DNA of 64,000 nucleotides from an uncultured Acidobacteriota bacterium (GTDB lineage Bacteria; Acidobacteriota; Vicinamibacteria; Vicinamibacterales; 2-12-FULL-66-21): contig CAWFPR010000013.1 in the NCBI GenBank assembly GCA_963817635.1, positions 156,740 through 220,739 of the forward strand. Direction: 5' to 3'. Under the pieces are notes generated by a model. It saw nothing but the letters and a program-made list of their open reading frames with translations, was not told the DNA's origin and made no database searches. How positions within the stretch are numbered: the first letter of the stretch is position 1; the number at the start of each line of letters is the position of its first letter. Below, piece by piece: positions 3,412 through 56,965 of the stretch. Position numbers and translations under genes: made by a program.

Positions 3412-5006
3412 GGCGTGCCTCTTGCCTGCGGCGTCAGGTCTGCTGTCTGGGCCCAGTCGGCGACCGCAGCGTCGGCCTCGCGCGAGCAGGTGCTCGAGAC
3501 GATGAAGCGGGCGACGACGTTCATGGTCGACAAGGCGAGCACGAACGGCGGCTACGTCTGGTCGGAGCTGCCCGATTTCTCTCGGCGATGGGGTGAACTC
3601 GAAGCGCGCGACACCATGATCTGGATTGAGCCGCCAGGCACGCTGGTCATGGGCGATGCTGGACCTCGATGCGGACCACGCGACGGGGATGAGTACTACG
3701 ACGAGGCGGCCGAGAAGGTCGCCGGCGCGCCATCTGGGCCCAGCTGCCATCGGGCGGCTGGAACTACGTGGCGGACTTCGCGGTCGATCGATTGCTCCGC
3801 GACTGGTACGACACGGTCGGCCGCAAGCGTGGCGCCTCGAGGAGTTCCAGCACTACTGGGGCAACGCGACGTTCGACGACGCGGGCAGAGCCGAGTCTGC
3901 CAAGTTCCTGCTGCGCCTGAACGTCGAGAAGCGCGACGCGAAATACGAGCCGGCCCTCGATCGTGCCATCCGGTCCGTCATCGAGAGCGAGGACCCGATC
4001 GGGAGCTGGCCGCAGCGCTACCCGCTCCAGGACCGAGTTCTCGCACGACGGCAGCCCGGATCACACGTTGAACATCATGTTCAACGACGACGTGGCGGGG
4101 CAGAACATCGAATTCTTGACGATGTGCGACCAGGCGCTGGGGATCCGCGATTGCTCGATCCACTGCGTCGCGGGATGAACGCGTTCCTGGTCATGCAGCA
4201 GGGTGCGCCGCAACCCGGATGGGCGCTTCAGAACACGCCCGACTTCAAGCCTGCGGGTGCGCGCACCTACGAGCCGAAGGCGATGGTGACCGACACCACC
4301 GCGACCAATATCGAGCTGCTGCTGCGTTTCTATCGCCTGACCGGCGAAACGAAGTTCCTCGCGCGGATTCCCGAAGCGATTGCCTGGCTCGAGAGCCTGG
4401 CGCTTCCTCCGGGTGTCGCGCCGCAGGGGCGCACGCACCCGACGTTCATCGAGGTCGGCACGAACAAGGCGCTCTACGTGCACCGCGAAGGCTCGAACAT
4501 CTTCAACGGACGATACTATGTGAACGCCGACCCGAAGGGCACCATCGGGCACTACAGCTCCTTCCGGCGTATCGATACCGCGAGGCTGCGGAAGCTCTAC
4601 GAGGAGGCGAAGGCCCTGTCGCCCGCGCAGGCGGCCGCTGATTCGCCCTTGACGCCCGGTGCGGGCATCGTGCCACTGCCCCGTTTCTACGTCGAGGACG
4701 CGGGCCGCGCACCCTCAGTCGAGACCCTCGTGGGATCGCTGAACGCGCTGGGCTACTGGCTCGTGCCGCTCGGGACGAACAGCCATTGGTACAGCGGCGA
4801 TGGCCTGACAACCATTCCGGACGGCGATGACTCGCAGACGATGGTGGGCGACGCGTCGGACACGTCGCTTATCCTGACAACCGGATCGTGGCATTTCGAC
4901 GGAGACGTACATCCGCAACATGGGTGTGCTGATACGTGTGCTCGATAGCGACCCTGGTCAGGCCGATGAGGCGGACGACCCGGGTGCCGGCCCTCCTGCA
5001 GGGTGA
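3412..5006 (+). pseudogene. pectate lyase, PelA/Pel-15E (PL10)-like, frame-broken
   Basis: Motifs spread over three frames: MKRATTFMVDKASTNGGYVW, FQHYWGNATFDDAGRAESAKFLLRL, DPIGSWPQRYPL, TLNIMFNDDVAGQNIEFL, APQPGWALQNTPDFKPAGARTYEP. Tail ISTETYIRNMGVLIRVLD, ending at TGA 5004-5006. The start is approximate. Confidence 0.65.
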
Positions 5007-5010
5007 GTGA

Positions 5011-5669
5011 ATGTTATGATGATGCGATTAGGCGCGCTCGCGGCGGGGCTGATCTCGCTGGCCGCGGCCATTGTCTGACCGGCGATCGACGGGCGTGCCC
5101 AGACTGTCGAGCTGATTGTCTGGAAAATGGACAATCTCTCCTCGATCGGGCGACATCCCGTCATGGCTGTTGGCATGCTGTGAGTGGTGGAGACGCCGAA
5201 TGGACGGGCTATCGAATCAAAGGCGCAACAGACGGACTGTCGTGGAGGTGAAACCGATCGGGGGCTTGTGCAGTTCATGCTGGAGGTCGTGTTCGAACGG
5301 GTGGCTGACGGCAACGAGGAGCAGCGATTCGTTCACGTCGAGGAGTCCGGAACGGGTAATCGGGCGCTCGTGGAGCTCCGTCGCCTGCCTGACGCCACGT
5401 GGGCGCTCGACACCTTCCTGCGGCACGGCGATGCGTCGCTCACGCTGCTCGATCGCGACCGCACGACCCCCACCGCGAGCTGGCACGTCGCGACGCTGGT
5501 GTTCGACGGACGGACGATGTCGCACGACGTGGACGGCGTGCGCGAGGCTGGAGGTGATGTGGCGTTCCAGCCGCTCGGCGAGGGGCGGACGTCCGTCGGC
5601 GTGCGGCAGAAGTGTTTCTCGCGGTTCAAAGGGAGGAATCGCGAAGTGCGCGTGACCCTGCCGTGGTGA
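5011..5669 (+). pseudogene. LamG/concanavalin-like domain protein with signal peptide, frame-broken
   Basis: Signal-like MMMRLGALAAGLISLAAAIV is followed by a premature stop. It continues in other frames as VELIVWKMDNLSS.. and FMLEVVFERVADGNEEQRFVHVEESGTGNRALVELR..WHVATLVFDGRTMSHDVDGV..GRTSVGVR (LamG-like pattern). Confidence 0.5.
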
Positions 5670-6463
5670 TTACCCTCTGGCCGGAAGGAGTTCCCGGCGC
5701 GACGCGAGACGGCGGCGAGGAGCGCCTGGAAGACGGCCGCGTCTACAACGTGCAGCGACCGATGCTGACCTGGCTGCCGCCGCCGCCCGGCACGGCGAGC
5801 GGAATGGCTGTGATTGTCTGTCCGGGCGGCGGATATGCCCGGCTCGTGATCGCCAACGAGGCCGACGGCGCGGCGCGGATCCGGCGCCCTCGGCATTTCG
5901 ACCTTCGCGCTCAAGGACCGGCTCGCGGAGATCGGGTACCCGGCCCGCTGCAGGACGTGCTCCGGGCGGTCCGGCTGCTGCGATCGCGCGAGGGGGAGTC
6001 GGGATCCGGGCCGATCGCATCGGGGTCTTCGGCGCGTCGGCGGGTGGGCACGTGGCCGCGATGGCCGCGACGCTGTTCGACTCGGAGGATGGCTGCAGGC
6101 GCGGTATGAGCTGTTGCACGCGATTGTGCGCTGCTCTATAGGTATCACGATGCAGGCGTTGCCACGACGGCTCGCGGACGGTTGCTCGGCAGCACGGCGA
6201 ACGACTCGTGAGCGGCTGTGCTAGAACGCGCGTCACTCGTGCGACGCGCCTGTTTTCTCGTGCATACCTGGAGGACTTGAGCGTTCGGTAGAGAACAGCT
6301 CCAGTTCTTACAGGCGCTGCGCGCGGCGGGCGTGTGCGCTGAACTCCACGTCTACGAGATAGGGCACACGGCTTAGGGATGTCGCCTGGTCTCGGGCTGA
6401 CGTCGGAGTGGCGCAGCGCTCGCGGAATGGCTGCGGTCGCACGGCTGGATTTCCACCCCATGA
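5669..6463 (+). pseudogene. alpha/beta-hydrolase esterase (acetyl-esterase/lipase-like), frame-broken
   Basis: ITLWPEGVPGA, AVIVCPGGGYARL, PLQDVLRAVRLLRS. In another frame: RIGVFGASAGGHVAAMAATLFD (GxSxG elbow). Tail EWLRSHGWISTP, then TGA 6461-6463. Confidence 0.6.
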
Positions 6464-6471
6464 CTGCGCAC

Positions 6472-8099
6472 ATGAAACGATTCATCACCGTTGCCGCCGC
6501 CGTCGTGCTGGCCATCTTCATGGCCGAGGCATCCTTCGCCCAGGGGCGCGGCTTCGAAGGACAGCGCAAAGCGGATTTCGGCAACGGCACGTATCTCAAT
6601 CCCATCTTCGCAGGCGACCATCCCGACCCGTCGATCCTGCAGTGACGGCGCCGACTACTACATGACGTTCTCCTCGTTCGACGCCTATCCGGGACTCGTC
6701 ATCTGGCACTGCGCGACCTGGTGAACTGGGAGCCGGTCGGCCCGGCGCTCTTCAGGAACGTCGGATCGGCTGGGCGCCGGATCGCGGAGCATGGCAAGCG
6801 GTACCATCTATTTTCGGCATCTCTCCGAACCGCTTGAACTACGTCATCTGGGCGGACGACATTCGCGGCCCCTGGAGCGAGCCGATCGATCTCGAGATGG
6901 GCAGATCGATCCCGGCCACGCCGTCGGTCCGGACGGCACGCGTTATCTCTTCCTGAGCGGCGGGCAGCTCGTTCAGCTCGCCGCCGACGGCCTGTCGGTG
7001 CTGAGTGCTAGAAGAAGGCGCGCAGCGGCTGGTTATACCCGAGGACTGGATTGTGGAAGGGTTCGCGAAGGAGGGCCCGAAGATCCGAAGCGCGGCGACT
7101 ACTACTACATGGTCCTGGCTGAAGGAGGCACCGCCGGCCCGCCGACCGGACACATGGTCGTCGTGGTCCGGTCGAAGACCATCGAGGGACCGAGGGAGAA
7201 CTCGCTGCATCAACCCGGTCGTGCGAACGGTTTCGCGCGGCGAGTACTGGTGGTCCAAGGGGTACGGTACGCCGTTGAGGCACCGGACGGCACATGGTTC
7301 CTCGTGTACCGCGCCTACGAGAACGGCTTCTACAATCTCGGCCGGCAGACGCTGCTCGAGCCTGTCGAATGGACCGCCGACGGCTGGTTCAGGGCCACCG
7401 GCGTCGATGTGTCGGCGCTGATCGAAAGCCGGATGGGGCGGCCGTGACGACGGATTTCCGTATAGGACCACTTCTCGACGAACCGGATGGGTGTGCAGTG
7501 GAGCTTCTACAGGGGCAGCGGGGAAGATACCGGGCGCTATCGCTACGAAAAGAACGGTTCGCGCTGAAGGAAAGGGCACGACGCCCGCCGACAGTTCGCC
7601 GTTGTGGTTCGTGACGGGTGATCACGCGTACGAGATCGAGGTGGAAATCGACGCCGATCCGGGGGCGTCGGCCGGACTGCTCCTGTTCTACAGCCGCAAG
7701 CTCTATGCGGGGCTCGGGTTGAGCGAATGAATCTGATCAGGCATCAGTACGGGACCGAGCGGCCCGGCGCGAAGCCTCCCGATTTCGGCCGGCACGTCTT
7801 CCTGCGCCTGCGCAACGATCGCAACATCCTCACCATGTTCTACAGCCCTGACGGGCGGATCTGGCGGAGGTTCGATCGCGGCATCGACGTGTCCGGCTAC
7901 CACCACAACGTGGCGTGATTTCCTGAGCCTCCGTCCGGCCTTGTATGCTTCCGGCATCGGGGAGGTACGCTTCCGGAACTTCCGGTACCGCGCGCTGGCT
8001 GTCGAGCCCGCCCCGGCGTCGCGGTCAAGCGGATCCCTGCTGCAGCACGATTGTGACATCGCGGTCGAGAAACCAGGAACCCACGAGGCGGTGGCATGA
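6472..8099 (+). pseudogene. glycoside hydrolase family 43 (beta-xylosidase/arabinofuranosidase-like), frame-broken
   Basis: ATG 6472, signal MKRFITVAAAVVLAIFMAEASFAQ. NPIFAGDHPDPSIL, GADYYMTFSSFDAYPGLVIWH, DLVNWEPVGPAL, IDPGHAVGPDGTRYLFLSGG, KRGDYYYMVLAEGGTAGPPTGHMVVV, PDGTWFLVY.AYENGFYNLGRQTLLEPVEWTADGWF. C-terminal sandwich AYEIEVEIDADPGASAGLLLFYS..VFLRLRNDRNILTMFYSPDG. All three frames are needed repeatedly. The 3' end is approximate (8000-8099). Confidence 0.75.
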
Positions 8100-12515: not shown

Positions 12516-12809
12516 TGGGTGGCGGTCGCGCTCATCAGTCTCGCGGCCGCGGCCCACCAGGGCTGGTCGGCGAACCTGTTTACCACGGCATCGGACATGT
12601 TCCCGCGCCATGCCGTCGGCTCGATCGTGGGACTGGGCGGCACGGCGGGCGCGGTGGGCGGGATGCTCATCGCGAAGCTCACCGGCTACCTGCTCGACAG
12701 CACCGGCAGCTACGTCCCGGTGTTCCTCATTGCCGGCTCCGCCTACCTGACGGCCCTGACGATCTTCCATCTGGCCGCACCGCGCCTCGAGACCGTCCGG
12801 CTGCAGTAG
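12516..12809 (+). pseudogene. C-terminal remnant (about 97 codons) of an MFS hexuronate-transporter-like gene
   Basis: WVAVALISLAAAAHQGWSANLFTTASDMFPRHAVGSIVGLGGTAGAVGGMLIAKLTGYLLDSTGSYVPVFLIAGSAYLTALTIFHLAAP resembles the last helices of ExuT-type MFS proteins. No N-terminal two-thirds is present between uxaA (end 12469) and this segment. Confidence 0.55.
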
Positions 12810-13014
12810 GGCGGACACGTCCCTGAGGCGCCCGGTCACCATAAGGGCACTTCCTGCGGGCCGGGCGCCGCTGGCGCGCTGCGTGAGCGCTCGGGCTCGA
12901 GCATCCTGTTCGTCGAACTGAGCACGGTCACGTCGCCGTCTCCGCCGGAGCAAGGGCGGCGCCAGCGTGGAAGCTCAACGGGGAACCGTCTCGCCGCGTG
13001 ACGGTTTTCCGAAA

Positions 13015-16557: not shown

Positions 16558-16695
16558 CTCGTTTCGGGCCTCTCAGTCTAGCCGAATCGCGCTGGTTGCC
16601 TGTTTTGTGGTATATCCGTCTGTCCCCAGACGCCCGCACAGGTCGATCGTCGCCGTTTGCGGCGGGCCGCCAGCCCGTTCGATATAGGAGCCTCT

Positions 16696-18906
16696 ATGAA
16701 GTTGGTCTGCCGAATTGTGTTCGCCGCCGCCATCTGCGCGTGGCTGCCGGTCTCCGCCGGTGCCGCGCCGCAGGGTCCTTCGGCGCAGGATCCGAAGGCT
16801 GCGCAGAAGCCGGATCAGAAGCCGACTCCGAAGCCGGACGAGCAGAAGCCCGACGAGCAGAAGCCCCAGAAGTACGAGGAGACCGTGGTCGTCAGCGCCT
16901 CGAAGACGGAGGAGAAGCTGGTGAACGCCCCGGCGACGATGACCGTGGTCGGGCTGCGTCAGCTCGAAACTGCCACGTCGCAGAACTTCGCGGAGCTGTT
17001 GCGGAACGTGCCCGGGCTGAACCTGACGCAGGTGTCGGCGCGCGACATCAACATCACGACGCGCGGCGCAACAGGCACGCTGGCAACGGGTCAGCTCGCC
17101 CTGCTCGACGGCCGCAGCCTGTATCAGGACTTCTTCGGGTTCGTGATGTGGGACTTCCTCCCCGTCAACCTCAACGAGATCAAGCAGATTGAAGTCATCC
17201 GCGGACCGGCCTCCGCGGTATGGGGAGCCAACGCGTTGTACGGCGTCGTCAACGTCATCACGAAATCGCCGCGCGAGATGCAGGGCACCAGCGCCACGTT
17301 CGGGCTGGGCACATTCGATCGGACCAATGGCGCCAGTAACGGGTCGCTCTGGTACATCAGCGGCACGCACGCGCAGGCGATCGACGACCACTGGGCGTTC
17401 AAGCTGTCGGCCGGCGGCTACTCGCAGGATCCGCTGTCGCGGCCGACCGGGATTATCCCCGGCTCACCGGGCTCGGCCACCGGCGGCGGGACGCCCTATC
17501 CGGCCTACACGAACACCGGAACCACCCAGCCGAAGTTCGACGGCCGCCTCGACTACGACTACGACGACGGCCGGAAACTGTCGATTTCGGGCGGCGTGGC
17601 GGGCACCGACGGAATCATGCACTCGGGCATCGGCCCCTTCGACATCAACAGCGGCTCGGTGATGAGCTATGCGAAGGTGAACTTCACCCGGCAGGGGCTG
17701 CGGGCGAGCTTCTTCACCAACATCCTCGACGGCGATGCCACGAACCTGCTCACCCGCGACGCGACCGGCAATCCGATCGGGTTCGCGTTCAAGACCAAGA
17801 CGTTCGACTTCGACGTCTCGAACGTGCAGACCTTCGCCAGCCGCCACGTGGTGAACTACGGGGGCAACCTGCGGTACAACAAGTTCGACCTCTCGCTCGC
17901 GCCGGCCGCCGACAACCGCACCGAGTTCGGCATGTACGCGCAGGACGAAATCTTCCTGAACGACCACTTCCGCTGGGTGATCGGCGGGCGGCTCGATCGC
18001 TTCGACTACCTCAATGACTTCGTGTTTTCGCCGCGCACGACGTTCATGATCAAGCCGTTCGAGAACCACACGGTGCGGCTGTCCTTCAACCGGGCGTACC
18101 GGTCGCCGTCGGTCATCAACAACCACCTCGAGGTGACGCTGGTCGAGCCGGTGGATCTGACGCCGTTCGCGTTCCTGAACCCGGCGGTCGCCAACCGGAT
18201 CTACCCGCTGCCGGTGCAATCGGTCGGCAATCCTGACCTGAAGGAGCAGTCCCTCGACGCCTACGAGATCGGCTACACGGGCATCGTGCGCTCCAACACG
18301 GTCCTGAGCGCGTCGTTCTACGTCAACAAGATGAAGAACGAGATCCTCTTCACCGAGCTGACCAACGAGCGGTGGACGGCAGCCAACCCGCCGCCCAACT
18401 GGGCGTTCGGCCTGCTGCCGGCCGCGGTCATCAACTTCGTGCCGGGCCAGAGCCTCCCGGCGCGCTTCACGTACCTGAACTTCGGCAAGTCCACGCAGAA
18501 GGGGCTGGAGCTCGGCGTGGACTCGTCGCTGAACCGCTACCTGAACGTGTTCGCCAACTACTCGTATCAGGCGAAGCCCGTGCCTCATGGCTTCGACATT
18601 TCCGAGCTGAACCTGCCGCCGAAGAACCGCTTCAACGCCGGCTTCGGGTTCACCTACAGCCGGTTCCTCGGGAACCTGGCGGTCAGCTACTCGGACAGCG
18701 CGTTCTGGCAGGACGTGCTCGACGACCGGTACCACGGCACGACCGACGCCTACACGCTGGTCAACGCCGGTTTCGGCGTCAAATGGGGCGACAGGCTGAC
18801 GACCACGGTCAAGGTCGTGAACCTCGGCAATGCCGATGTCCAGCAGCACGTCTTCGGCGACATCCTGAAGCGGCAGGTCGCCGGCGAACTTCGCATTCAG
18901 TTCTGA
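16696..18906 (+). CDS. TonB-dependent outer-membrane receptor
   Basis: AGGAG 6 nt upstream of ATG 16696. Signal MKLVCRIVFAAAICAWLPVSAGA, a K/P/D/Q-rich linker (QKPDQKPTPKPDEQKPDEQKPQK), and the plug (ETVVVSASKTEEKLVNAPATMTVV..IEVIRGPASAVWGANALYGVVNVITKSP). The barrel ends ..GELRIQF. No frame breaks. Confidence 0.9.
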   Translation: MKLVCRIVFAAAICAWLPVSAGAAPQGPSAQDPKAAQKPDQKPTPKPDEQKPDEQKPQKYEETVVVSASKTEEKLVNAPATMTVVGLRQLETATSQNFAELLRNVPGLNLTQVSARDINITTRGATGTLATGQLALLDGRSLYQDFFGFVMWDFLPVNLNEIKQIEVIRGPASAVWGANALYGVVNVITKSPREMQGTSATFGLGTFDRTNGASNGSLWYISGTHAQAIDDHWAFKLSAGGYSQDPLSRPTGIIPGSPGSATGGGTPYPAYTNTGTTQPKFDGRLDYDYDDGRKLSISGGVAGTDGIMHSGIGPFDINSGSVMSYAKVNFTRQGLRASFFTNILDGDATNLLTRDATGNPIGFAFKTKTFDFDVSNVQTFASRHVVNYGGNLRYNKFDLSLAPAADNRTEFGMYAQDEIFLNDHFRWVIGGRLDRFDYLNDFVFSPRTTFMIKPFENHTVRLSFNRAYRSPSVINNHLEVTLVEPVDLTPFAFLNPAVANRIYPLPVQSVGNPDLKEQSLDAYEIGYTGIVRSNTVLSASFYVNKMKNEILFTELTNERWTAANPPPNWAFGLLPAAVINFVPGQSLPARFTYLNFGKSTQKGLELGVDSSLNRYLNVFANYSYQAKPVPHGFDISELNLPPKNRFNAGFGFTYSRFLGNLAVSYSDSAFWQDVLDDRYHGTTDAYTLVNAGFGVKWGDRLTTTVKVVNLGNADVQQHVFGDILKRQVAGELRIQF

Positions 18907-18909
18907 GAA

Positions 18910-19082
18910 GGCTCAAGGCTCAGGGCTCAGGGGGCCGGGCTCAGGCGGCCGGGCTCAGGGGCAGGGGAAAAGGTTTCGGGGTTCGAGCGGCCGCGTGGCG
19001 GTACAATGGTGCGCCGGGCGTCCGTGAGCCGTGAATCCTGAGCCCTGAACCTTGAGCCCTAAGCCCTCTCAGTCCCTGAGCC
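18910..19082. repeat. heptamer-repeat palindromic intergenic element (GGCTCAR type), copy A
   Basis: Left arm: ggctcaaggctcagggctcagggggccgggctcaggcggccgggctcagggg. Right arm: cctgagccctgaaccttgagccctaagccctctcagtccctgagcc (its approximate reverse complement). The roughly 70-nt core contains TACAAT (19001-19006). Confidence 0.8.
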
Positions 19083-19932
19083 TTGTCCATCCGCCTCCTC
19101 GCCATCGACCTCGACGGGACGCTCCTCGACAGCCAGGGGCAGGTGCCGGAGGCGAACCGGGTGGCCATCGGGCGCGCCGTCGATGCGGGGGTGGAAATCG
19201 TGCTCGCCACGGGCCGGCGCTACGATTTCGCCCGTCCGGTCTTCGAGGCCCTGCCGCAGCCGCTCACGCTCATCCTCAGCAACGGAGCCGTCGTCAAGAC
19301 CCGCGACGGGGAGACGCTGATGCTGCACCTGCTGCCGCGGGCGGTGGCGCGCGCCGTGCTGATGCAGGTGCCCGAGCACCGTGACAGCGCCGCGGTCATC
19401 TTCGATCGTCCGCGCGAAGGGCAGGTGGTCTACCAGGCGATCGACTGGGAGCACTCCCGTCACCATCGTTTCTTCTCGGCGAACCGGCCGTACCTCGCCG
19501 AAGTGGCCCCGCTCGAAGACTGTCTCACCGAGGATCCGGTGCAGGTGATGTTCTCCGGCGGATGTGTCGAGATGCGGGAGCTGTACGGGCGGCTGAAGCC
19601 CGTGACCGCCGACGTCGCGCCGTTCTTCGAGGTCGCGCTCACCGAGGTACGAGGACCGTGATTTCTCTCTCGTGGACGTCGTCCGCGCCGGCTGCTCGAA
19701 AGGATCGGCGCTGGCGGAATGGGCGGCGCGGCGCTGTGTGCCGCCCGCGGCGGTGATGGCGATCGGCGACAATCTCAACGACCTTCCGATGCTGGAGTTC
19801 GCCGGAACGCCGGTCGTGATGGGCAACGCGTCCGGCGAGCTGAAGACACGCGGCTGGGCGACGACTTCCACCAATGACGACGCCGGAGTCGCGCAGGCGA
19901 TCGAGACGTTCGTCCTCGAAAGGGCGTCATAA
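19083..19932 (+). CDS. Cof-type HAD-IIB phosphatase (one frame switch near 19650)
   Basis: TTG start. IRLLAIDLDGTLLDS, VEIVLATGRRY. After the switch, frame 1 gives VDVVRAGCSKGSALAEWAARR..VMAIGDNLNDLPMLEFAGTPVVMGNA. Confidence 0.8.
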
Positions 19933-19942
19933 CATCGTGGCT

Positions 19943-21865
<1,923 letters not shown>

Positions 21866-21872
21866 AGCTTCC

Positions 21873-22043
21873 CGATTGCAGACTGCAGATTGCAGATTGC
21901 AGATTGCGGGGATTGAAGAGTGAAGATTGCCGATTGGGGCTTTGAGCCGCACCTTCCAACCGCAGTAAGATAGGCCTTGGTCCAATCGGCAATCGCCACT
22001 CGACAATCCGTCAATCTTCAGTCTGCAATCTTCAGTCTGCAGT
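21873..22043. repeat. heptamer-repeat palindromic intergenic element (GCAGATT type) with embedded promoter candidate
   Basis: Left arm: cgattgcagactgcagattgcagattgcagattgcggggattgaagagtgaagattgccgattgg. Right arm: ccaatcggcaatcgccactcgacaatccgtcaatcttcagtctgcaatcttcagtctgcag. The core has TTGAGC (21942-21947), an 18-nt spacer and TAAGAT (21966-21971). Confidence 0.8.
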
Positions 22044-22048
22044 GCGTT

Positions 22049-23719
22049 ATGCCCGAATTCATCTACACCATGAAGGGTCTGGGGAAGGTGCATCCCCCGG
22101 ACCATGTCGTGCTGAAGGAGATCTGGCTCTCCTTCTACTACGGCGCGAAGATCGGAGTCCTCGGCCTCAACGGGGCGGGCAAGAGTTCGCTCCTCCGCAT
22201 CATGTCGGGAGAGGACCAGTCGTTCATCGGGGAGGCGTGGCCCGCCTCCGGGATTTCGATCGGGATGCTGCACCAGGAGCCGAAGCTCGACCCGGCGAAG
22301 AACGTCCTCGGCAATGTGGAGGAGGGCGTCGCCGGGATCAAGGCGCTGCTGCAGCGCTACGACGACATCAACGCGCGGTTCGCGGAGGACCTGTCCGCCG
22401 AGGAGATGGACAAGGTCCTCGAGGAGCAAGGAAAGGTACAGGACCGCATCGAGGCGGCCAGCGGGTGGGACCTCGACTCGCGGGTGGAGCTGGCGATGGA
22501 CGCCCTGCGCCTGCCGCCGCCCGATGCGGACGTCACGACGCTGTCCGGCGGCGAACGGCGCCGCGTGGCGCTCTGCCGGCTGTTGCTGCGTTCACCGGAT
22601 CTGCTGCTGCTGGACGAGCCGACGAACCATCTCGACGCCGAGTCGGTCGCCTGGCTCGAGCGGTTCCTGAAGGACTACCAGGGCACCGTCGTGGCCGTGA
22701 CCCACGACCGGTACTTCCTCGACAACGTCGCCGGCTGGATCCTCGAGCTCGACCGAGGGTCCGGGATTCCGTGGGAGGGGAACTACTCGTCGTGGCTGGA
22801 GCAGAAGCAGGCGCGGCTCGCGCAGGAAGAGAAGGCGGAGACCAAGCGCCAGCGCACGCTCGAGCGCGAACTCGAGTGGATCCGCATGTCGCCGCGCGCG
22901 CGCCAGGCCAAGGGCAAGGCGCGACTCAACGCTTACGAGGACATGCTGAAGGAGGAAACGACGAAGAAGATCGACCAGGTCGAGATCTTCATCGCGCCCG
23001 GTCCACGCCTCGGCGACATCGTCGTCGAAGCGCGCGGCCTCAAGAAGGGCTACGGCGACGTGCTCCTCATGGACGACGTGAATTTCACGCTGCCACCCGG
23101 CGGGATTGTCGGTGTGATCGGTCCGAACGGCGCCGGGAAGACGACGCTGTTCCGGATGATCACCGGAAAGGAGCAGCCGGATGCCGGCACGCTGCGGCTC
23201 GGCGAGACGGTCAAGGTCGGGTACGTCGACCAGTCCCGTGAACTCGATCCCGGCAAGAGCGTGTGGGAGGAAATCACCGATGCGCGCGACATGGTGGAAC
23301 TGGGCAATCGCGAGGTGGCTTCGCGCGCGTATGTCTCCTGGTTCAACTTCAAGGGACGCGACCAGCAGCGCAAGGTCAGCGAGCTTTCGGGCGGTGAACG
23401 CAATCGCGTGCACCTCGCGAAGCTGCTGAAGGGCGGCTCGAACCTGCTGCTCCTCGACGAACCGACCAACGACCTCGACGTGGACACGCTCCGAGCGCTC
23501 GAGGAGGCTCTGCTGAATTTCGCCGGCTGCGCCGTCGTCATCAGCCACGACCGCTGGTTCCTCGATCGCATCGCGACGCACATGCTCGCCTTCGAAGGCG
23601 ACAGCAAGGTCGTGTGGTTCGAGGGGAACTACCAGGACTACGAGGTGGACCGCCACCGCCGCCTGGGTGCCGACGCCGACCAGCCGCACCGCATCAAGTA
23701 CCGGAAGCTGACGCGATGA
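22049..23719 (+). CDS. ettA: ABC-F energy-dependent translational throttle protein EttA
   Basis: Near-colinear with my memory of E. coli EttA: [135 protein letters not shown]. Confidence 0.95.
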
Positions 23720-24684
23720 TCCGGCGCTCGGCGCTGGGCGTTCGGGGCTCGCTGGTGCTCGCCATGCTGGCGGTGAACGCCTGCGGCGGCTCGGGGGAAA
23801 AGTCGCGCTTTATCTCCATCGCCACCGGCGGCACGGGCGGCGTCTATTACCCGTACGGCGGTGGCATCGCGAAGGTGCTGAACGAGAGCGTCCCCGGCAT
23901 CCGGGCGACGGCGGAGGTGACATCCGCTTCGGTGGACAACCTTAAGCTGATTCGCGACGGGAAGGCCGATATCGCGTTCACGCTCGCCGACACGCTGGCC
24001 GACGCGGTCGCCGGACGAGGGGCGTTCGCGGGCGGCGCGCCGGTTCCGGCGGCGAGCCTCGCGGTCCTGTATTCGAACTCCACCCAGCTCGTCGTCCTCG
24101 CTTCGTCCGGCATCACGTCGGTCGCCGGATTGAAGGGGAACATCGTCTCGACCGGTTCGCCGGGAAGCGGAACGGAGGTAATCGCGTTCCGGGTGCTCCG
24201 AGCCGCCGGGCTCGACCCCGACACTGACATCTCGAAGCAGGGGCTCGGCGTGTCGGAATCGGCCGACGCGCTGAAGGACGGCAAGATCGACGCGTTCTTC
24301 TGGAGCGGAGGGCTTCCGACGCCGTCGCTTCAGGATCTTTCGCACACGTCCGGCATCACCATCCGGATGATCCCGAGCGCCGACCTGGTGCCCGCGCTGC
24401 AGCGCGAGCATGGCAATCTCTACTTCCCGATTGAGATTCCCGCCGGCACCTACCCGGGCGTGACGGCGGCCGTGCCGGTTGTCGGCGTGGCGAACGTGCT
24501 CGTCGTCAACCGCTCCATGCCGGACGATCTCGCGTACCAGATCACGAAAGCCATCTTCGAGCACCAGTCCGAGCTTGCCGCGATCCACCCCGAGGCGCGC
24601 AACTTGTCGATCCAGGCCGCGCAGGTCGGGTCACCAGCCCCGTTTCACCCAGGCGCGCAACGGTACTTCGACGAGCGCAAGTAG
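23716..24684 (+). CDS. TRAP transporter solute receptor, TAXI family
   Basis: ATGA overlap with the ettA stop. Lipoprotein-like [25 protein letters not shown], then [63 protein letters not shown]. Confidence 0.85.
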
Positions 24685-24735
24685 GCTCAAGGCTCAAGGC
24701 TCAGGGGGCAAGGCTCAAGCCCCTGTGAGCCCCAG
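24684..24735. repeat. GGCTCAR heptamer element, short copy between convergent genes (terminator-like)
   Basis: ggctcaaggctcaaggctcagggggcaaggctcaagcccctgtgagcccc. CTCAGGGG pairs with CCCCTGTGAG. It overlaps the last codons of the minus-strand gene. Confidence 0.7.
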
Positions 24736-26481
24736 CCGCTGCGTGTTCTCCTGCACCGGTTCCTCCACCTCGCCAGGGCTTCGCAAATCGGCTTGTCGGC
24801 TGGCGATGAATCCCAGCGCGGCGTAGAGGGTCAACGCGATGGCGACGAAGGTGCCGATGCCCCTGGGACTCGCGAGAGCCGCGCGCTCCAGCCATCCGAT
24901 CCAGTAGACCGCCGCGATTCCAGCGAACAGGTAGACCGGGCCGCGTGTCTTCAGTGTGCCGCTCGGGGTATAGGCACACGCCAGTGGCAGGCGTTCGGCG
25001 CCGAGCGTCGCCACCTGCAGCAGCACCGCGCCCAGAAGCGTGCCGAGCAGCGCATGTGCGCCGGCGCCGCGGAGGCCGAGCGGTACCGCATAGATCGGCG
25101 CCAGCAGCAACGTCGTGGGGACGATCACGCCTGCGACGGCAAACCGCTTGACTCCCGCCACATAGTGCCGCGCATCGCCCAGCCACGCGACGTGGAACAC
25201 CCAGTTGGCCCGCAGGTCCGCGGGTAACCCCATCGCGTGGCGGAACCCGATCACGACCGCGATCACCGCGACAACCTGCGGCGCGAGCAGCAGCACCGGG
25301 ACGTCCGGGCGTTGCCCGGCGCTGGCGACGAACGGCAGGAGGATGATCGTGAACGCGATGGCGACCGCCGCAGAGGTCGCCATCGAGATGCGGTGGGGCA
25401 GGCTCCGGACGACGCATCGACACGCGAACCAGTACCCCGCGCCTGGGCCACCGGATGCCTGGCGATCATCGCATTCACGATGCGCGTGGTCATGCGGGCG
25501 GCAAGCGTTCGGCCGCCGCTGCTCGCAGCGGGTGGCGCTCCATCGATGCGCCGGTTGTTCCACCAGTAGGCCGGCAGGGCGGTTATGGCCGTGGCGGCCA
25601 GCGCGATCACCGCGACCAAAGCCAGCCCGGCGAACGCCGGCTGTGCGCTGGAATAGATGGTCGCGAGCCGCGCTTCCTGGCCCGCGACCCAGCGGGGCAG
25701 CTCTCCATGTGGAAGGCCACTCATGATGTCGCCGACAAGGTACTCGTGCAGGCTGACGAACCAGAGAGGCGGGATCCGCCAGCGCAGCGGCGCTGGCTCG
25801 ACCAGCCACCGCTGCGCGACACCGGACGACAGTCCAGGTAGCAGCAGCAGGCTGACGATACCGGCAACCGTGAGTGTTGCGTGCACGGGCACCGACACGC
25901 GCATGAAACGCGCGGTACCGAGCGCGGCATGGAGGAGTTCGCGCACGGCGAGCACCGCGAGGAACCCGAATGCGCCCGCTGACAGCGCGACGAGCGCGTG
26001 CGCGAGCAGCAGCTTGCCGGTATCCACGAATCCGATGGGCAGCTTCGCGACGACCAGCAGAGGAAAGAGCACGCTGGTGACGGCGTTCAACACGATGGCG
26101 GCGCCGCCGGCGACGATCACGACCGAGGCCAGCTTGGCGCGGACGATCGTGCGACGCTCGATCGGCAGCGGCCGAGGATCGCGATGTCGCGCGCGTCTAG
26201 CGAGAGCGCGTTCCACGACGCGAGCGCGGCGAGCGCCATCACCGTCATCGAAATGCCGAACAGGAAGAACCAATCGTCGAGGGCCGGGACCGCGGTGCGA
26301 CCCGGCGACTGGAAGACCTGCAGGACGGACTTGAGCGACATCATGAGGTGACGAACAGGCCGCCGGCGATCAGCCCGGCCGAAATCGCCGCCAGCATTTC
26401 GTGCCGGTCGGCGTCCGGGGAGATGAGGTCGTTGTCCAGGAACCGCCGGACGAAATGCCTCCGCAGCAGGCGTTCAGGCAC
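24715..26481 (-). pseudogene. large polytopic membrane protein (putative ABC-associated permease), at least three frame switches
   Basis: GTG 26481 overlaps the ATPase stop. VPERLLRRHFVRRFLDNDLISPDADRHEMLAAISAGLIAGGLFVTS, then (shift) MSLKSVLQVF..WFFLFGISMTVMALAALAS, then (shift) IERRTIVRAKLASVVIVAGGAAIVLNAV..., then (shift near 25440) ..AVAIAFTIILLPFVASAG..YLFAGIAAVYWIGWLERAAL. Confidence 0.6.
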
Positions 26482-33743: not shown

Positions 33744-36588
<2,845 letters not shown>

Positions 36589-36591
36589 GGC

Positions 36592-36706
36592 GCTCAGGGC
36601 TCAGGCTCAAGGCTCAGGGCTCAGGGCTCAAGCAAGAGCATTCATGACAAAGGCCGGCACGTGAAGTGCCGGCCTTTGTGTTCTTTCCCTAAGCCCTAAG
36701 CCCTCT
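36592..36706. repeat. GGCTCAR heptamer-repeat element, copy C, enclosing a strong hairpin
   Basis: Left arm gctcagggctcaggctcaaggctcagggctcagggctcaag (36592-36632). Right arm ccctaagccctaagccctc (36688-36706). Confidence 0.8.
36647..36686. terminator. perfect 14-bp hairpin terminator between convergent genes
   Basis: acaaaggccggcac (36647-36660), gtgaa loop, gtgccggcctttgt (36666-36679), followed by gttcttt. Confidence 0.75.
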
Positions 36707-37184
36707 ATCGCCGCCGAAGGCCCTTCTTCGCGGCGGCCTTCCGCTTCGGCGCGGCCCTTCGTGCGGCGGCCTTCTTCTTCGGTGCCGCGCGCTTCGCGGC
36801 GGCCTTCTTCTTCGACGCTGCGCGCTTCGCGGCGGCCTTCTTCTTCGGCGCTGCGCGCTTCGCGGCGGCCTTCTTCTTCGGCGCCGCGCGCTTCGCGGCG
36901 GCCTTCTTCTTCGGTGCCGCGCGCTTCACGGCGGCCTTCTTCTTTGGCGCGGCGGGCATCACCGCCGCCCTCTTCGGGGCGGCGGCCTTCTTCGCGGCCG
37001 GTTTCGCCCGCTCCATCCTGCCCCCGCCCGCGCTGTCCGGCGCCGGTCCCTGAATTTCCGTGATCGTTTCAACGATTTCCGTCACGATCACGTCGTTACC
37101 GTCGAACGGGCTGCCATCGATGTCGTCTGGGTGTGGCAGCAGGGTCTCGTCGTCTGGCTCGTCCTGGTACGGTTCGTCTGCCAT
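36705..37184 (-). CDS. histone H1-like / AlgP-like lysine-alanine repeat protein with acidic N-terminal domain
   Basis: MADEPYQDEPDDETLLPHPDDIDGSPFDGNDVIVTEIVETITEI, then about six tandem AKRAAPKKKAA units. These are encoded by a 33-bp DNA repeat between about 36760 and 36950. Confidence 0.75.
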   Translation of the reverse strand: MADEPYQDEPDDETLLPHPDDIDGSPFDGNDVIVTEIVETITEIQGPAPDSAGGGRMERAKPAAKKAAAPKRAAVMPAAPKKKAAVKRAAPKKKAAAKRAAPKKKAAAKRAAPKKKAAAKRAASKKKAAAKRAAPKKKAAARRAAPKRKAAAKKGLRRR

Positions 37185-37224
37185 CGCGTATCGTCTCCTT
37201 GTCCGTGGATTGACCTGACTGCGG

Positions 37225-38832
37225 TCAGCGGCCTCCCCCCGTGCGCGCCGGCGGTGTCGGCGGGGCAGGCATCTGATCCTTGCTGAAGCGCGGCAGCATC
37301 TCGTCGCGCATGGCGAGCTCGTAGACTGCCGCCGCAATCGAGATCGCCGATTTCTTCACGTCGTCTTCGATGATGCGCTCGTAGGTGTCGAGCGACGTAT
37401 GCCAGGTGTAGGTGCCGTATTCGATGGGATCCTGGCTGAGCCCGATGCCCGGCAGGCCGGCCTCGTTGAAGGTCGTGCTGTCGGTGCCGCCCGAACGCCG
37501 GCTGTTCGTGGCAATCGCACCGGCGACACCAAGATCGGCGAACGGCGCGAATGCTTCGCGCAGCACGGTGGCGGCTTCGTCCGGGCCGAAGACGCTGGCG
37601 CCGCGAATTCGGCCCGTGCCCGAGTCCACGTTCAGGTACCCGTCGAAGGTCGCGAACTCGGGCTTCTGGGCCTCGTACGTGCCGAAGTGCTGCGCGACGT
37701 AGGCCTTCGAGCCCAGCAGACCCTCTTCTTCACCCCCCCAGAGCGCGACCCGGATCGTTCGCCGCGGCTGCACGCCGAGCGCCTTCAGGATGCGGGCCGC
37801 CTCCATCATCACCGCGCAGCCGATGGCGTTGTCGGTGGCGCCCGTCGCCGCATGCCACGAATCCAGGTGCCCGCCGAGCATGACCACTTCGGCCTTCTTG
37901 TCGGTCCCGGCGATTTCGGCGATCGCGTTGTACGAAGTCGTGCCTTCGGGGTACGCGTGATTGACGATCGTGAACTCGAGCTTGACCGGGCTCCCGTCCG
38001 CGATCAGGCGCGAGATTCGCCCGTAGTCCTCATTGCGGAGGATCACGGTGGGCACGGCCTTCGTCACGTCGTAGGTGCTGTTCTGAAACGCGCGAATCTG
38101 GCCGTGGTCGCGCCCGGCATCGTTCACGCGCACGAGCGCGCCGCCAGCAACGAGCATGGCATCGACCTGGAGGTTGACTTGGCGCGCGGGTACGCGCCCC
38201 TGGCTGGGAGATGGGGCCGGTTGGCCGCGGCGGCCACCCCGCGCGGCCGGCGGTGTGTTCGGGTCGTACTGCCGCCGCACGTCGTCATCGTTGCGGCGCA
38301 GGGGAGCCTTGTCGATCGTCACGGGCACGACGATGGCCTTGCCGACCAGGACGATCTTGCCGGCGACGGTGCCCTTCGTCGCGGCGATCCACGCCGCCAG
38401 CTCTTCGGCGGTCGGGTTGGCCGGCGGCACGATCTGGACGGCATCGCCGCTCGCGGTGCCCTTCGTCGACGGTGTCCACCCCAGCACTTCTCCGACGAGG
38501 CTGTCCTTCACGGGGGCGACGATGAAGCCCGAGAAGCGCTCGTTGAGCCAGCCGGGATGCCCGAAATCCCACGGTTCGAGGTGGGCGTTGGTGAGGCCCC
38601 ACTCGGTCATCTGCTTGAGCGTCCATTCGGCTGCCGCTTTGTAGTTCGGGGAGCCGATCAGGCGGGGACCGTACACATCCGTCAGGTAGTGCATCGTCCG
38701 CATGATCTGGGAGTGGTCGCTCTCTTCGGCGCGTATCTTCGCGTTGATTTCGTCGTTGAGGCGTTCCGGTGCCGTCGTGGGAGTCGCGACAGCAGCCAGG
38801 ACAATCACGACGGCGGTGGCGGTCTTGAACAT
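37225..38832 (-). CDS. M28-family peptidase with PA domain, secreted
   Basis: ATG 38832, [85 protein letters not shown]. Confidence 0.85.
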
Positions 38833-56857: not shown

Positions 56858-56965
56858 GGTTCTTATCTCTCCCGGTTTATCGGGCAGGAAGTAGCACCTG
56901 GGCATCAGCGCCTGGTTGCTGTGGCTTCGACGGGCCTGTTCCCTCAGCCACTCTGGATAAGCGTC
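56858..56965 (-). promoter_or_regulatory. SAM-I (S-box) riboswitch
   Basis: Minus-strand RNA: CUUAUCCAGAGUGGCUGAGGGAACAGGCCCGUCGAAGCCACAGCAACCAGGCGCUGAUGCCCAGGUGCUACUUCCUGCCCGAUAAACCGGGAGAGAUAAGAA. It matches the S-box core (CUUAUC.AGAG.GG..GAGGGA..GGCCC..GAAGCC.CAGCAACC...GGUGCUA..UCC.GC...GAUAAG). It lies about 60 nt upstream of hom ATG 56800. Confidence 0.9.

Follow-up and report, generated by a model that had tools for sequence, protein, structure and literature searches.

Heptanucleotide tandem repeats are abundant in prokaryotes, and their origin and function are unresolved (PMC4679880, PMC4692102). In many prokaryotes heptamers are the most abundant class of long simple-sequence repeats (SSRs), according to Mrazek (2007) as cited in a passage of PMC4679880. 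The best described paired arrays are those of Xanthomonas, built from the heptamer GGGAATC (Rehm et al. 2015, PMC4692102). Each Xanthomonas genome has 70-75 convergent pairs with the G-rich array first, from which stem-loops or cruciforms are possible. These arrays show a strong intergenic bias, a preference for about four units and a position within about 50 bp of stop codons; the pairs lie mostly between co-directional or convergent genes and are under-represented between divergent genes. The Xcc and Xac genomes share GGGAATC loci that vary widely in both length and sequence. Compared with controls, these repeats more often contain the start or the end of a transcript, although no function has been established. 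Nostoc has a counterpart heptamer, GGGGA(C/T)T (PMC4692102). A second kind, the TAACTGA arrays of marine Beggiatoaceae, cyanobacteria and Bacteroidetes, is almost entirely direct (169 direct sets vs 1 indirect; MacGregor 2015, PMC4679880); in Beggiatoaceae these arrays abut start codons, and binding of S1, Csp or CsrA has been proposed (PMC4679880). Here we describe E1, an intergenic element made of the heptamer GGCTCAR (R is A or G) and its reverse complement, found in a 64,000-nucleotide (nt) stretch of DNA, hereafter the window, from an uncultured Acidobacteriota bacterium of the Vicinamibacterales (GenBank assembly GCA_963817635.1, contig CAWFPR010000013.1).

E1 lies between a TonB-dependent receptor gene and a HAD hydrolase gene. 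An earlier note, made from the sequence, had placed it between these two genes and had given the gap 173 nt; the real gap is 18907-19082, or 176 nt, and the whole of it is occupied by an array, a core and an inverted array. The parts of E1 and the flanking genes are:

18910-18967, no strand assigned: E1 left arm, G-rich; GGCTCAA, GGCTCAG, GGCTCAG, then a period-14 alternation of GGGCTCA and GGSGGCC.
18968-19021, plus strand: E1 core, the hairpin loop, about 55 nt, with the conserved block GGCGGTACAATGGTGC at 18997-19012.
19022-19082, no strand assigned: E1 right arm, C-rich; a (YTGAGCC)-type array with the degenerate units TGAATCC, TGAACCT and TAAGCCC.
16657-18906, plus strand: upstream gene, TonB-dependent receptor (Pfam Plug and TonB_dep_Rec_b-barrel; from the list of open reading frames, ORFs).
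19083-19932, plus strand: downstream gene, Cof-type HAD hydrolase with a TTG start (Pfam Hydrolase_3; tblastn matches in frames +1 and +2).

The (GGCTCAR)n of the left arm begins 3 nt past the TGA stop codon of the receptor gene (18904-18906), and the alternating units of its period-14 part include GGGGGCC and GGCGGCC. The right-arm units run in the order TGAGCCG, TGAATCC, TGAGCCC, TGAACCT, TGAGCCC, TAAGCCC ... TGAGCC, the last of which (19077-19082) directly abuts the TTG start codon of the HAD gene at 19083; this start codon has no Shine-Dalgarno sequence. Tandem Repeats Finder (TRF) reported periods of 7 and 14 at 18910-18961 and 19025-19067. The TACAAT box that the earlier note had placed in the core is present as a -10-like hexamer at 19002-19007, and a sigma-70 scan gave no -35 match in the core.

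With at most one mismatch allowed, the window contains 11 copies of the double heptamer GGCTCARGGCTCAR, where 0.11 would be expected; none of 100 shuffled sequences reached 11. All 11 matches fall in three clusters, namely the E1 gap, 24684-24735 and 36592-36706, the last two being the places where the earlier note had seen the arm sequence recur. The longest inverted repeat of E1 has 44-nt arms that are 75% complementary. The segment 18905-19090 (186 nt), which spans the gap, folds as RNA into a long imperfect hairpin of -116.7 kcal/mol (z = -7.27) and as DNA to -53.3 kcal/mol (z = -4.95). On the strength of these heptamer counts, the inverted repeat and the fold z-scores, the earlier description of a palindromic intergenic element with heptamer arms is correct and lies far beyond chance. 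Its interpretation was too narrow: it overlooked a second unit, E2, and with it the fact that the architecture recurs rather than the GGCTCAR sequence, since E2 has the same layout made from a different heptamer. E1 very probably belongs to a lineage-wide class of paired heptanucleotide SSR arrays. The other units in the window are:

21866-22048, no strand assigned: E2, a GATTGCA-built array, core and inverted array, from the stop codon of an ABC exporter gene (21863-21865) to the ATG start codon of EttA at 22049.
24684-24735, no strand assigned: E3, (GGCTCAR)4-5 with a single inverted unit, GCCCCTGTGAGCCCC, between convergent genes.
36592-36706, no strand assigned: E4, between convergent M14 peptidase and KKAAA-repeat genes.

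In E2 the left arm, (GATTGCA/GACTGCA)n, covers 21874-21936, and the right arm, (CAATCnn/TGCAATC)n, covers 21983-22041 and runs up toward the EttA start codon, which again has no Shine-Dalgarno sequence. The core (21937-21982) contains TTGAGC (21942-47) and TAAGAT (21966-71) with an 18-nt spacer, and the RNA has a minimum free energy of -96.9. A full sigma-70 promoter was considered for the E1 and E2 cores and rejected, as none passes the scan and only -10-like hexamers are present. E3 is mostly a direct array and overlaps the TAG stop codon of a TAXI/NMT1_3 solute-binding gene. E4 has a left arm, (GCTCAGG)~6, at 36592-36632 and a right arm, (CCCTAAG)2.6, at 36687-36704, and in its core a canonical intrinsic terminator hairpin (36647-36679) precedes a T-rich tail. 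Because the E4 array sits between a stop codon and this terminator, it would be transcribed as a 3' untranslated region (UTR) if the terminator works. A further period-7 TRF match at 23722-23751 (CGGCGCT) was ruled out as an element; it is coding sequence, the signal peptide of the TAXI protein.

Species-representative genomes (one per species) were scanned for (GGCTCAR)3. The loci considered in this work are numbered L001-L206, and viral contigs (IMG/VR) L207-L225. The earlier note had named confinement of the motif to the window as a refutation; the motif is not so confined, for (GGCTCAR)3 occurs at at least 119 loci. Among the matches listed, 62 are from Acidobacteriota (hand tally of record titles), including Vicinamibacterales, Luteitalea and Microflora Danica metagenome-assembled genomes (MAGs), with several loci per MAG; MFD02242.bin.2.7 alone has at least six among the matches listed. 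Also among these matches, a GGCTCA array is followed within 250 nt by a TGAGCC array in 27 pair combinations (about 24-25 distinct elements), and the reverse order, TGAGCC before GGCTCA, was seen at one locus only. The same loci hold array-core-inverted-array units made of other heptamers, GGTTCAG, GAGTCGG, AGCTTCC, TTTTCGG and GATTTTG, and further ones made of AAAAGGT, GGGTGCT, GATTGCG, AAATCGT and CTCCCAA. Units of non-GGCTCA heptamers also occur in Thermoanaerobaculia, Gemmatimonadales, Bacteroidales, Omnitrophota, Armatimonadetes and Gammaproteobacteria. The class of paired heptamer arrays is thus abundant in Acidobacteriota (Vicinamibacterales). GGCTCAR itself is not restricted to this phylum, because multi-locus arrays of it are found in the cyanobacterium Phormidium pseudopriestleyi (L006, L054, L057, L059) and in the Gammaproteobacteria Wenzhouxiangella (L080, L083, L085) and Pseudomarimonas (L007, L018). 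Nineteen viral or proviral contigs of IMG/VR (L207-L225) also contain (GGCTCAR)3, some with 3-5 consecutive matches, and plasmid records gave one trivial 62-nt similarity only. Cyanobacterial short tandemly repeated repetitive (STRR) heptamers are comparable lineage-specific heptamer arrays. The unit GGCTCAG also matches the 5' region of 16S rRNA, at the end of the 27F primer site, which we take to be a chance coincidence.

The gaps orthologous to E1 and E2 could be followed through a series of relatives. EttA of the window is 95% identical to proteins of Vicinamibacterales MAGs, and the closest locus described here, L120, is syntenic with the window at about 88% DNA identity. In L120 the TonB-HAD gap has GGCTCAR arms of about 7-8 units each, more regular than those of the window, and a core with the same GGCGGTACAATrGTGC block and a 29-nt indel. 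At the L120 site of E3 there are about 22 units, while the window has 4-5. The L120 site of E2 has shrunk to 34 nt (cGATTGCActcTGCAATCTGCAATC...) and, since 1+2 heptamers remain, this "empty" site has the look of a palindrome that collapsed, not of an excision. Among other relatives, the TonB-HAD gap of L125 holds (GGCGSTC)~9 and an inverted array, and the core between them contains TACACT and a small terminator-like hairpin. The L127 contig begins in the core, so that only the right arm, (GCCTTTT)n, is seen, and GGTACAATGGTGC is kept. L131 has the heptamer GGGATCA and a core box TAAGCT, L133 has CAGGAGA/CTAGGAG, and L135 has GGGGCTR. In L134 the gap (1166-1500) is a near-palindrome of about 335 nt in which about 35 GCAGATT units abut about 15 GCAATCY units with no core; this heptamer is that of E2 in the window. 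A palindrome of this size is expected to be unstable where SbcCD is active.

Overall, the TonB-HAD gap shows the same layout in at least seven heptamers across the window and its relatives, at least six of them besides GGCTCAR. Across five relatives a -10-like box (GTACAAT, GTACACT or GTAAGCT) can be aligned while the arms are not the same, which indicates that a homologous core is kept and the arms around it are replaced in place; through such replacements both arms remain complementary. The gap upstream of EttA behaves in a similar manner: its expanded counterpart of E2 in L125 has GACTGMA arms and TTGCCG-17-TAGAAT, and in L121 it has GGGCGAC/GTCTCCT arms with TACAAT. Not every relative has a heptamer unit. 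The TonB-HAD gap of L121 contains a plain 45-nt hairpin, those of L129 and L132 contain repetitive extragenic palindromic (REP) sequences of the GTAG type, and that of L130 contains nothing; the EttA-upstream gap of L126 also contains REPs. E3 is likewise not universal, because the TAXI orthologue of L038 has no array past its stop codon. In the L121 counterpart of E4, the array is placed, as in the window, between a stop codon and a terminator. The gaps that hold heptamer units are hot spots for several kinds of hairpin element. The GTAG-tagged REP-like hairpins, for instance GTAGGGGCCGTTCGTGAACGGCCC and GTAGGGCGAGGCTTCAGCCTCGCC, are located at L126 2733-2840, L129 690-840 and L132 1255-1300.

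The general properties of the class were examined in 363 kb of related sequence that had not been selected by pattern. Tandem arrays of at least three copies numbered 26 with period 7, five with period 14 and at most four with any other period. Of 34 heptamer arrays, 17 have a partner in inverted orientation (at least 12 of 14 bases) no more than 300 nt away; the reverse-only and complement-only controls each give 3 of 34. The non-GGCTCA pairs have the G-rich arm first in 17 cases and the C-rich arm first in five (p = 0.017). On either strand the G-rich arm is almost always 5' of the C-rich arm, which is the "convergent" orientation of Xanthomonas; avoidance of exposed C-rich, Rho-loading RNA was considered for this rule, as speculation only. 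Copy number has a mode of 3-4 units and (4,4) is the commonest pair, in a scan that required at least three units on one arm and is biased accordingly. Four strains with 99.4-99.6% identity agree in two of three arrays, and the third shows a 4-unit indel. The arms of compact copies (see below) lie 1-16 nt from stop codons, and arms in co-directional gaps abut start codons without a Shine-Dalgarno sequence; the orientation of the genes flanking compact copies was assigned crudely, by G+C content of the third codon position (GC3).

These results place E1 and its relatives closest to the Xanthomonas GGGAATC pairs, with which they share 7-nt tandem units, convergent pairs, an intergenic position near stop codons, about four units per array and the occupation of the same loci in relatives with variable length and sequence, as seen between the window and L120 at three sites and in further relatives. 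They differ in phylum and in heptamer. Further differences are that a genome holds several heptamer dialects, which take one another's place at one orthologous locus, that most arrays lack four tracts of three G, that a conserved -10-like box or a canonical terminator is found in the cores, and that some GGCTCAR copies share a non-repetitive inner stem in the manner of dispersed repeats. Like the TAACTGA arrays, ours are lineage-specific and present at many intergenic sites, and in both E1 and E2 the right arm abuts a start codon without a Shine-Dalgarno sequence; unlike those nearly all direct arrays, half of the arrays here are in inverted pairs. The earlier note did not recognise a described family, and indeed no Rfam match was found. 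With covariance models at the gathering score, the only match in the window is a SAM riboswitch elsewhere, and at E<=1 there was nothing meaningful in 18800-24800 and nothing in 17 related loci. The kind, however, had already been described in Xanthomonas (PMC4692102). No paper on such elements in Acidobacteriota was found in the literature searched. Thus E1 is of a known but unexplained kind, and the phylum and the heptamers are new. The coexisting dialects, the replacement of heptamers with layout and core box kept, the G-first order across unrelated heptamers and the promoter-like box or terminator in the core go beyond the Xanthomonas description.

On balance, the explanation that we favour, taken as a whole, is that E1 is a slippage-made member of the heptamer-array class which forms a boundary hairpin around an internal promoter; the boundary-hairpin function of E1, taken by itself, we propose only tentatively. 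Arrays would arise and change size by replication slippage, especially efficient for 7-nt units, and the arms would stay complementary because pairing is selected, because the template is switched inside the palindrome, or for both reasons. Read-through RNA of the upstream gene would form an imperfect hairpin of about 60 bp, which may mark the boundary of a transcription unit, either as a 3'-end protection, as a site of processing or as a termination barrier. The HAD-ABC-EttA genes may be driven from the promoter-like box in the loop, and their 5'UTR would then be the unpaired C-rich arm. A G+C-rich hairpin directly past a stop codon resembles an intrinsic terminator, and E1, E2 and the compact elements differ from one in having no U-tract: none was found in 18700-19300 or 21700-22200, nor in the compact elements, and the only intrinsic terminator identified in these units is the inner hairpin of E4. 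A mechanistic precedent for a role at the RNA level is the (ATCTTTC)n repeat of Haemophilus influenzae hmw1A, a heptamer SSR that is transcribed into a long hairpin. This hairpin, in the 5'UTR between promoter and start codon, is cleaved by RNase III, and its structure and processing set expression and influence the change in repeat number (Rapun-Araiz et al. 2025, PMC12721329). In contrast to the elements here, hmw1A is a single contingency locus of a pathogen, in which one SSR arm pairs with a non-repetitive G-rich region and phase variation has been demonstrated.

Several points weigh against this explanation, in which we infer every functional step. Complementarity between the E1 arms is only 75%, and their degenerate units lack compensatory changes and are decaying relative to L120, so pairing is not tightly maintained in E1. 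In some relatives the gap holds no element or another one, which makes the element dispensable, and the -10 box of L159 lies outside the hairpin, so a promoter in the loop is not general. E1 has neither a U-tract terminator nor a full sigma-70 promoter. Occlusion of the start codon was tried as a translational role and rejected: the unpaired probability of the start region in read-through and core-initiated RNA is 0.32 vs 0.39 for HAD and 0.43 vs 0.42 for EttA, so that start-codon accessibility is predicted to be equal in the two RNAs. Regarding constraint on the RNA, the evidence from sense and antisense folding is mixed. In 7 of the 11 large co-directional elements the sense-strand RNA has the better fold and the larger number of G.U pairs, whereas the compact GGCTCAR pairs show no sense-strand bias and, in three of three clear co-directional cases, the strand of the type-1 core favoured by G.U pairing is the antisense strand. 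Next to E1, the HAD gene is split by a +1 frameshift near 19646-19648 when compared by tblastn with the intact 284-aa orthologue of L120; it may be a true pseudogene or a (homopolymer) assembly error.

Because of this mixed RNA-level evidence, the unsupported occlusion model, the uncompensated decay of E1 and the adjacent HAD frameshift, a neutral origin stays a strong rival, which we rate as possible though somewhat doubtful. The elements would then be a neutral or selfish by-product of mutationally favoured heptamer SSRs, which survive only between genes because seven is not a multiple of three; hairpin template switching (quasipalindrome correction) would create the inverted pairs and keep them complementary, the signals of the core would have existed beforehand, and the whole would be functionless. 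The quick gain, loss and resizing at orthologous sites (absent in L130, collapsed in L120) fits such an origin, as do the uncompensated decay of the E1 arms, the lack of a consistent sense-strand bias in compact elements and the 50% of arrays that are solitary. It also agrees with the slippage idea of Mrazek (2007), as quoted in a passage of PMC4679880, and with the Xanthomonas RNA-seq analysis, which yielded no function (PMC4692102). Less easily accommodated are the layout that persists at one gap through several complete heptamer replacements, the strong G-first orientation, the preference for 3-4-unit arms and the precision with which arms abut stop and start codons. In addition, one heptamer is common to many loci of a genome, which pure local slippage does not explain.

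Many GGCTCAR copies are compact elements of about 90 nt, with 3-5 units, a conserved inner stem and 3-5 inverted units. The type-1 inner stem, GGCAAGATCTTCGAG-loop-TCGAAGGTTTTGCC, is non-repetitive and asymmetric, and the type-2 stem has AAGAGCATTCWGATC... Ten type-1 copies, at unrelated loci in at least five MAGs, align well when oriented and are present in both orientations, which is the signature of a dispersed repeat. This raises the alternative that E1 derives from a REP-like or MITE-like mobile element (MITEs being miniature transposable elements with inverted repeats): a non-autonomous GGCTCAR hairpin would be copied by an enzyme acting in trans, E1, E3 and E4 would be old copies, expanded or decayed, and E1 would surround or have absorbed a local promoter. 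We consider such an origin of E1 unlikely, even though the conserved stem at ten unrelated loci and the several loci per MAG (at least six in MFD02242.bin.2.7) argue for it. So does E4, whose left part is 94-95% identical to elements in the MAG loci L025 and L089, while the genes of these MAGs are only about 70% identical to those of the window, and GTAG-type REPs fill the same gaps in relatives. REPs and the bacterial interspersed mosaic elements (BIMEs) are extragenic palindromes tagged with GTAG or CGTC, for which roles in termination and mRNA stabilisation have been proposed (PMC3733652). Our elements resemble them, and MITEs, as dispersed intergenic palindromes at gene ends in both orientations, of which the compact GGCTCAR copies share a core. 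They differ from REPs in having heptamer arms of variable copy number, instead of a fixed 20-40-nt palindrome, and no GTAG/CGTC tag, and from MITEs in having no terminal inverted repeats with target-site duplications and in arms that turn over around locus-specific cores. By eye, the flanks of 24 compact copies show no target-site duplications, and no transposase turned up in the window, where no search was aimed at one. A multi-copy conserved body is seen for the compact type-1 copies, while E1 and E2 have cores that are particular to their locus and homologous from one relative to the next, with the arms changing in place, and E4 matches the type-2 core in part. The presence of elements at orthologous sites in 88% identical genomes indicates no recent mobility here and counts further against a mobile origin. 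In the window, the type-1 inner palindrome was ruled out, since all its matches are in coding sequence, and the type-2 palindrome is matched only in part, within E4.

The earlier note had also proposed the left arm as a G-quadruplex (G4) candidate and the right arm as a G4 on the other strand. This reading is weak and only partly right: relaxed motifs with 10-11-nt loops are present in E1 and G4Hunter peaks at 2.0 at 18957, the junction of arm and core, but there is no canonical motif. On the C-rich right arm G4Hunter reaches only -1.08. Regular-expression and G4Hunter searches for the canonical G3+N1-7 motif were negative for E1 on both strands, and E2, E3 and E4 have no G4 motif, even relaxed. 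As an explanation of the element, namely control of transcription or translation by a G4 of the G-rich arm (and by one of the C-rich arm, on the other strand), this appears very improbable. The G4Hunter value at 18957 and the relaxed motifs of E1, with loops up to 12 nt, favour it. A canonical motif is formed by four or more (GGGCTCA)n units, of which L120 has about 22, and Xanthomonas GGGAATC oligonucleotides form G4 in vitro (PMC4692102). Against it, a canonical motif is present in only 40 of 152 GGCTCA arrays (26%, at G+C-rich loci) and in 4 of 25 paired left arms, a minority that follows from the seventh base being A in about 29% of units. The heptamers of sister elements (GATTGCA, AAATCGT, GATTTTG and similar) have no G-runs and cannot form a G4, and the competing hairpin has -109 to -117 kcal/mol, depending on the span folded. 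G4 potential is incidental to the family and hairpin potential general.

A further alternative is that the heptamers are repeated sites for a DNA- or RNA-binding protein, or that they act as a phase-variable switch like that of hmw, in which copy number would adjust expression of the neighbouring gene; this we regard as quite improbable. In its favour, arrays abut start codons without a Shine-Dalgarno sequence, as do the TAACTGA arrays of Beggiatoaceae (PMC4679880), copy number differs between relatives and between strains, and hmw of H. influenzae is a precedent (PMC12721329). The many unrelated heptamers at one locus and in one genome argue against one sequence-specific binder. The variation is also slower than at contingency loci, given that two of three arrays are identical among four strains of about 99.5% identity, and the flanking genes are of the housekeeping type (EttA, HAD, peptidases).

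A bolder proposal is that Acidobacteriota, and probably Xanthomonas, cyanobacteria and others, possess a dedicated process, perhaps an enzyme or a selfish element in place of plain slippage. It would lay down heptamer arrays typical of the lineage on both sides of intergenic hairpins, promoters and terminators in a symmetrical way, always with the G-rich arm first, and could overwrite one dialect with another at the same locus. We find it improbable; if it were true, the arrays would be evolvable insulators between transcription units. The Vicinamibacterales loci offer a comparative system, with one gap in at least seven heptamers, a conserved core box, a G-first order of the arms and measurable change in array length between relatives and strains. 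With this system it becomes testable whether pairing is selected or template-switched and what seeds one heptamer at many loci.

The arrays also have a practical consequence, as gene callers read straight through them and the annotations of soil MAGs are corrupted. In L120 the TonB-receptor gene call (4697-7069, 790 aa) extends into the element (6905-7118), to about 50 nt before the HAD start, because the GGCTCAG repeats are open in all three frames. The TAXI gene of L120 has no stop codon before its 22-unit array (12714-12868).

Other repeats and one RNA family were identified in the window. Within the M14 peptidase gene next to E4, a GGC-rich triplet and 24-nt repeat at 35944-35994 codes for a Gly/Arg-rich linker, GGRGGRGGGGGGGRGGG, of the 883-aa protein, and a similar G/R stretch occurs earlier in the protein. 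On the other side of E4, a 33-nt tandem repeat of 7.6 copies (36726-36975) lies within the ORF 36705-37337 on the minus strand and encodes KKAAAKRAAP-type repeats of a histone H1-like basic protein with no Pfam family match. The SAM riboswitch (RF00162, 80 bits) is located at 56860-56963 on the minus strand, upstream of a minus-strand gene.

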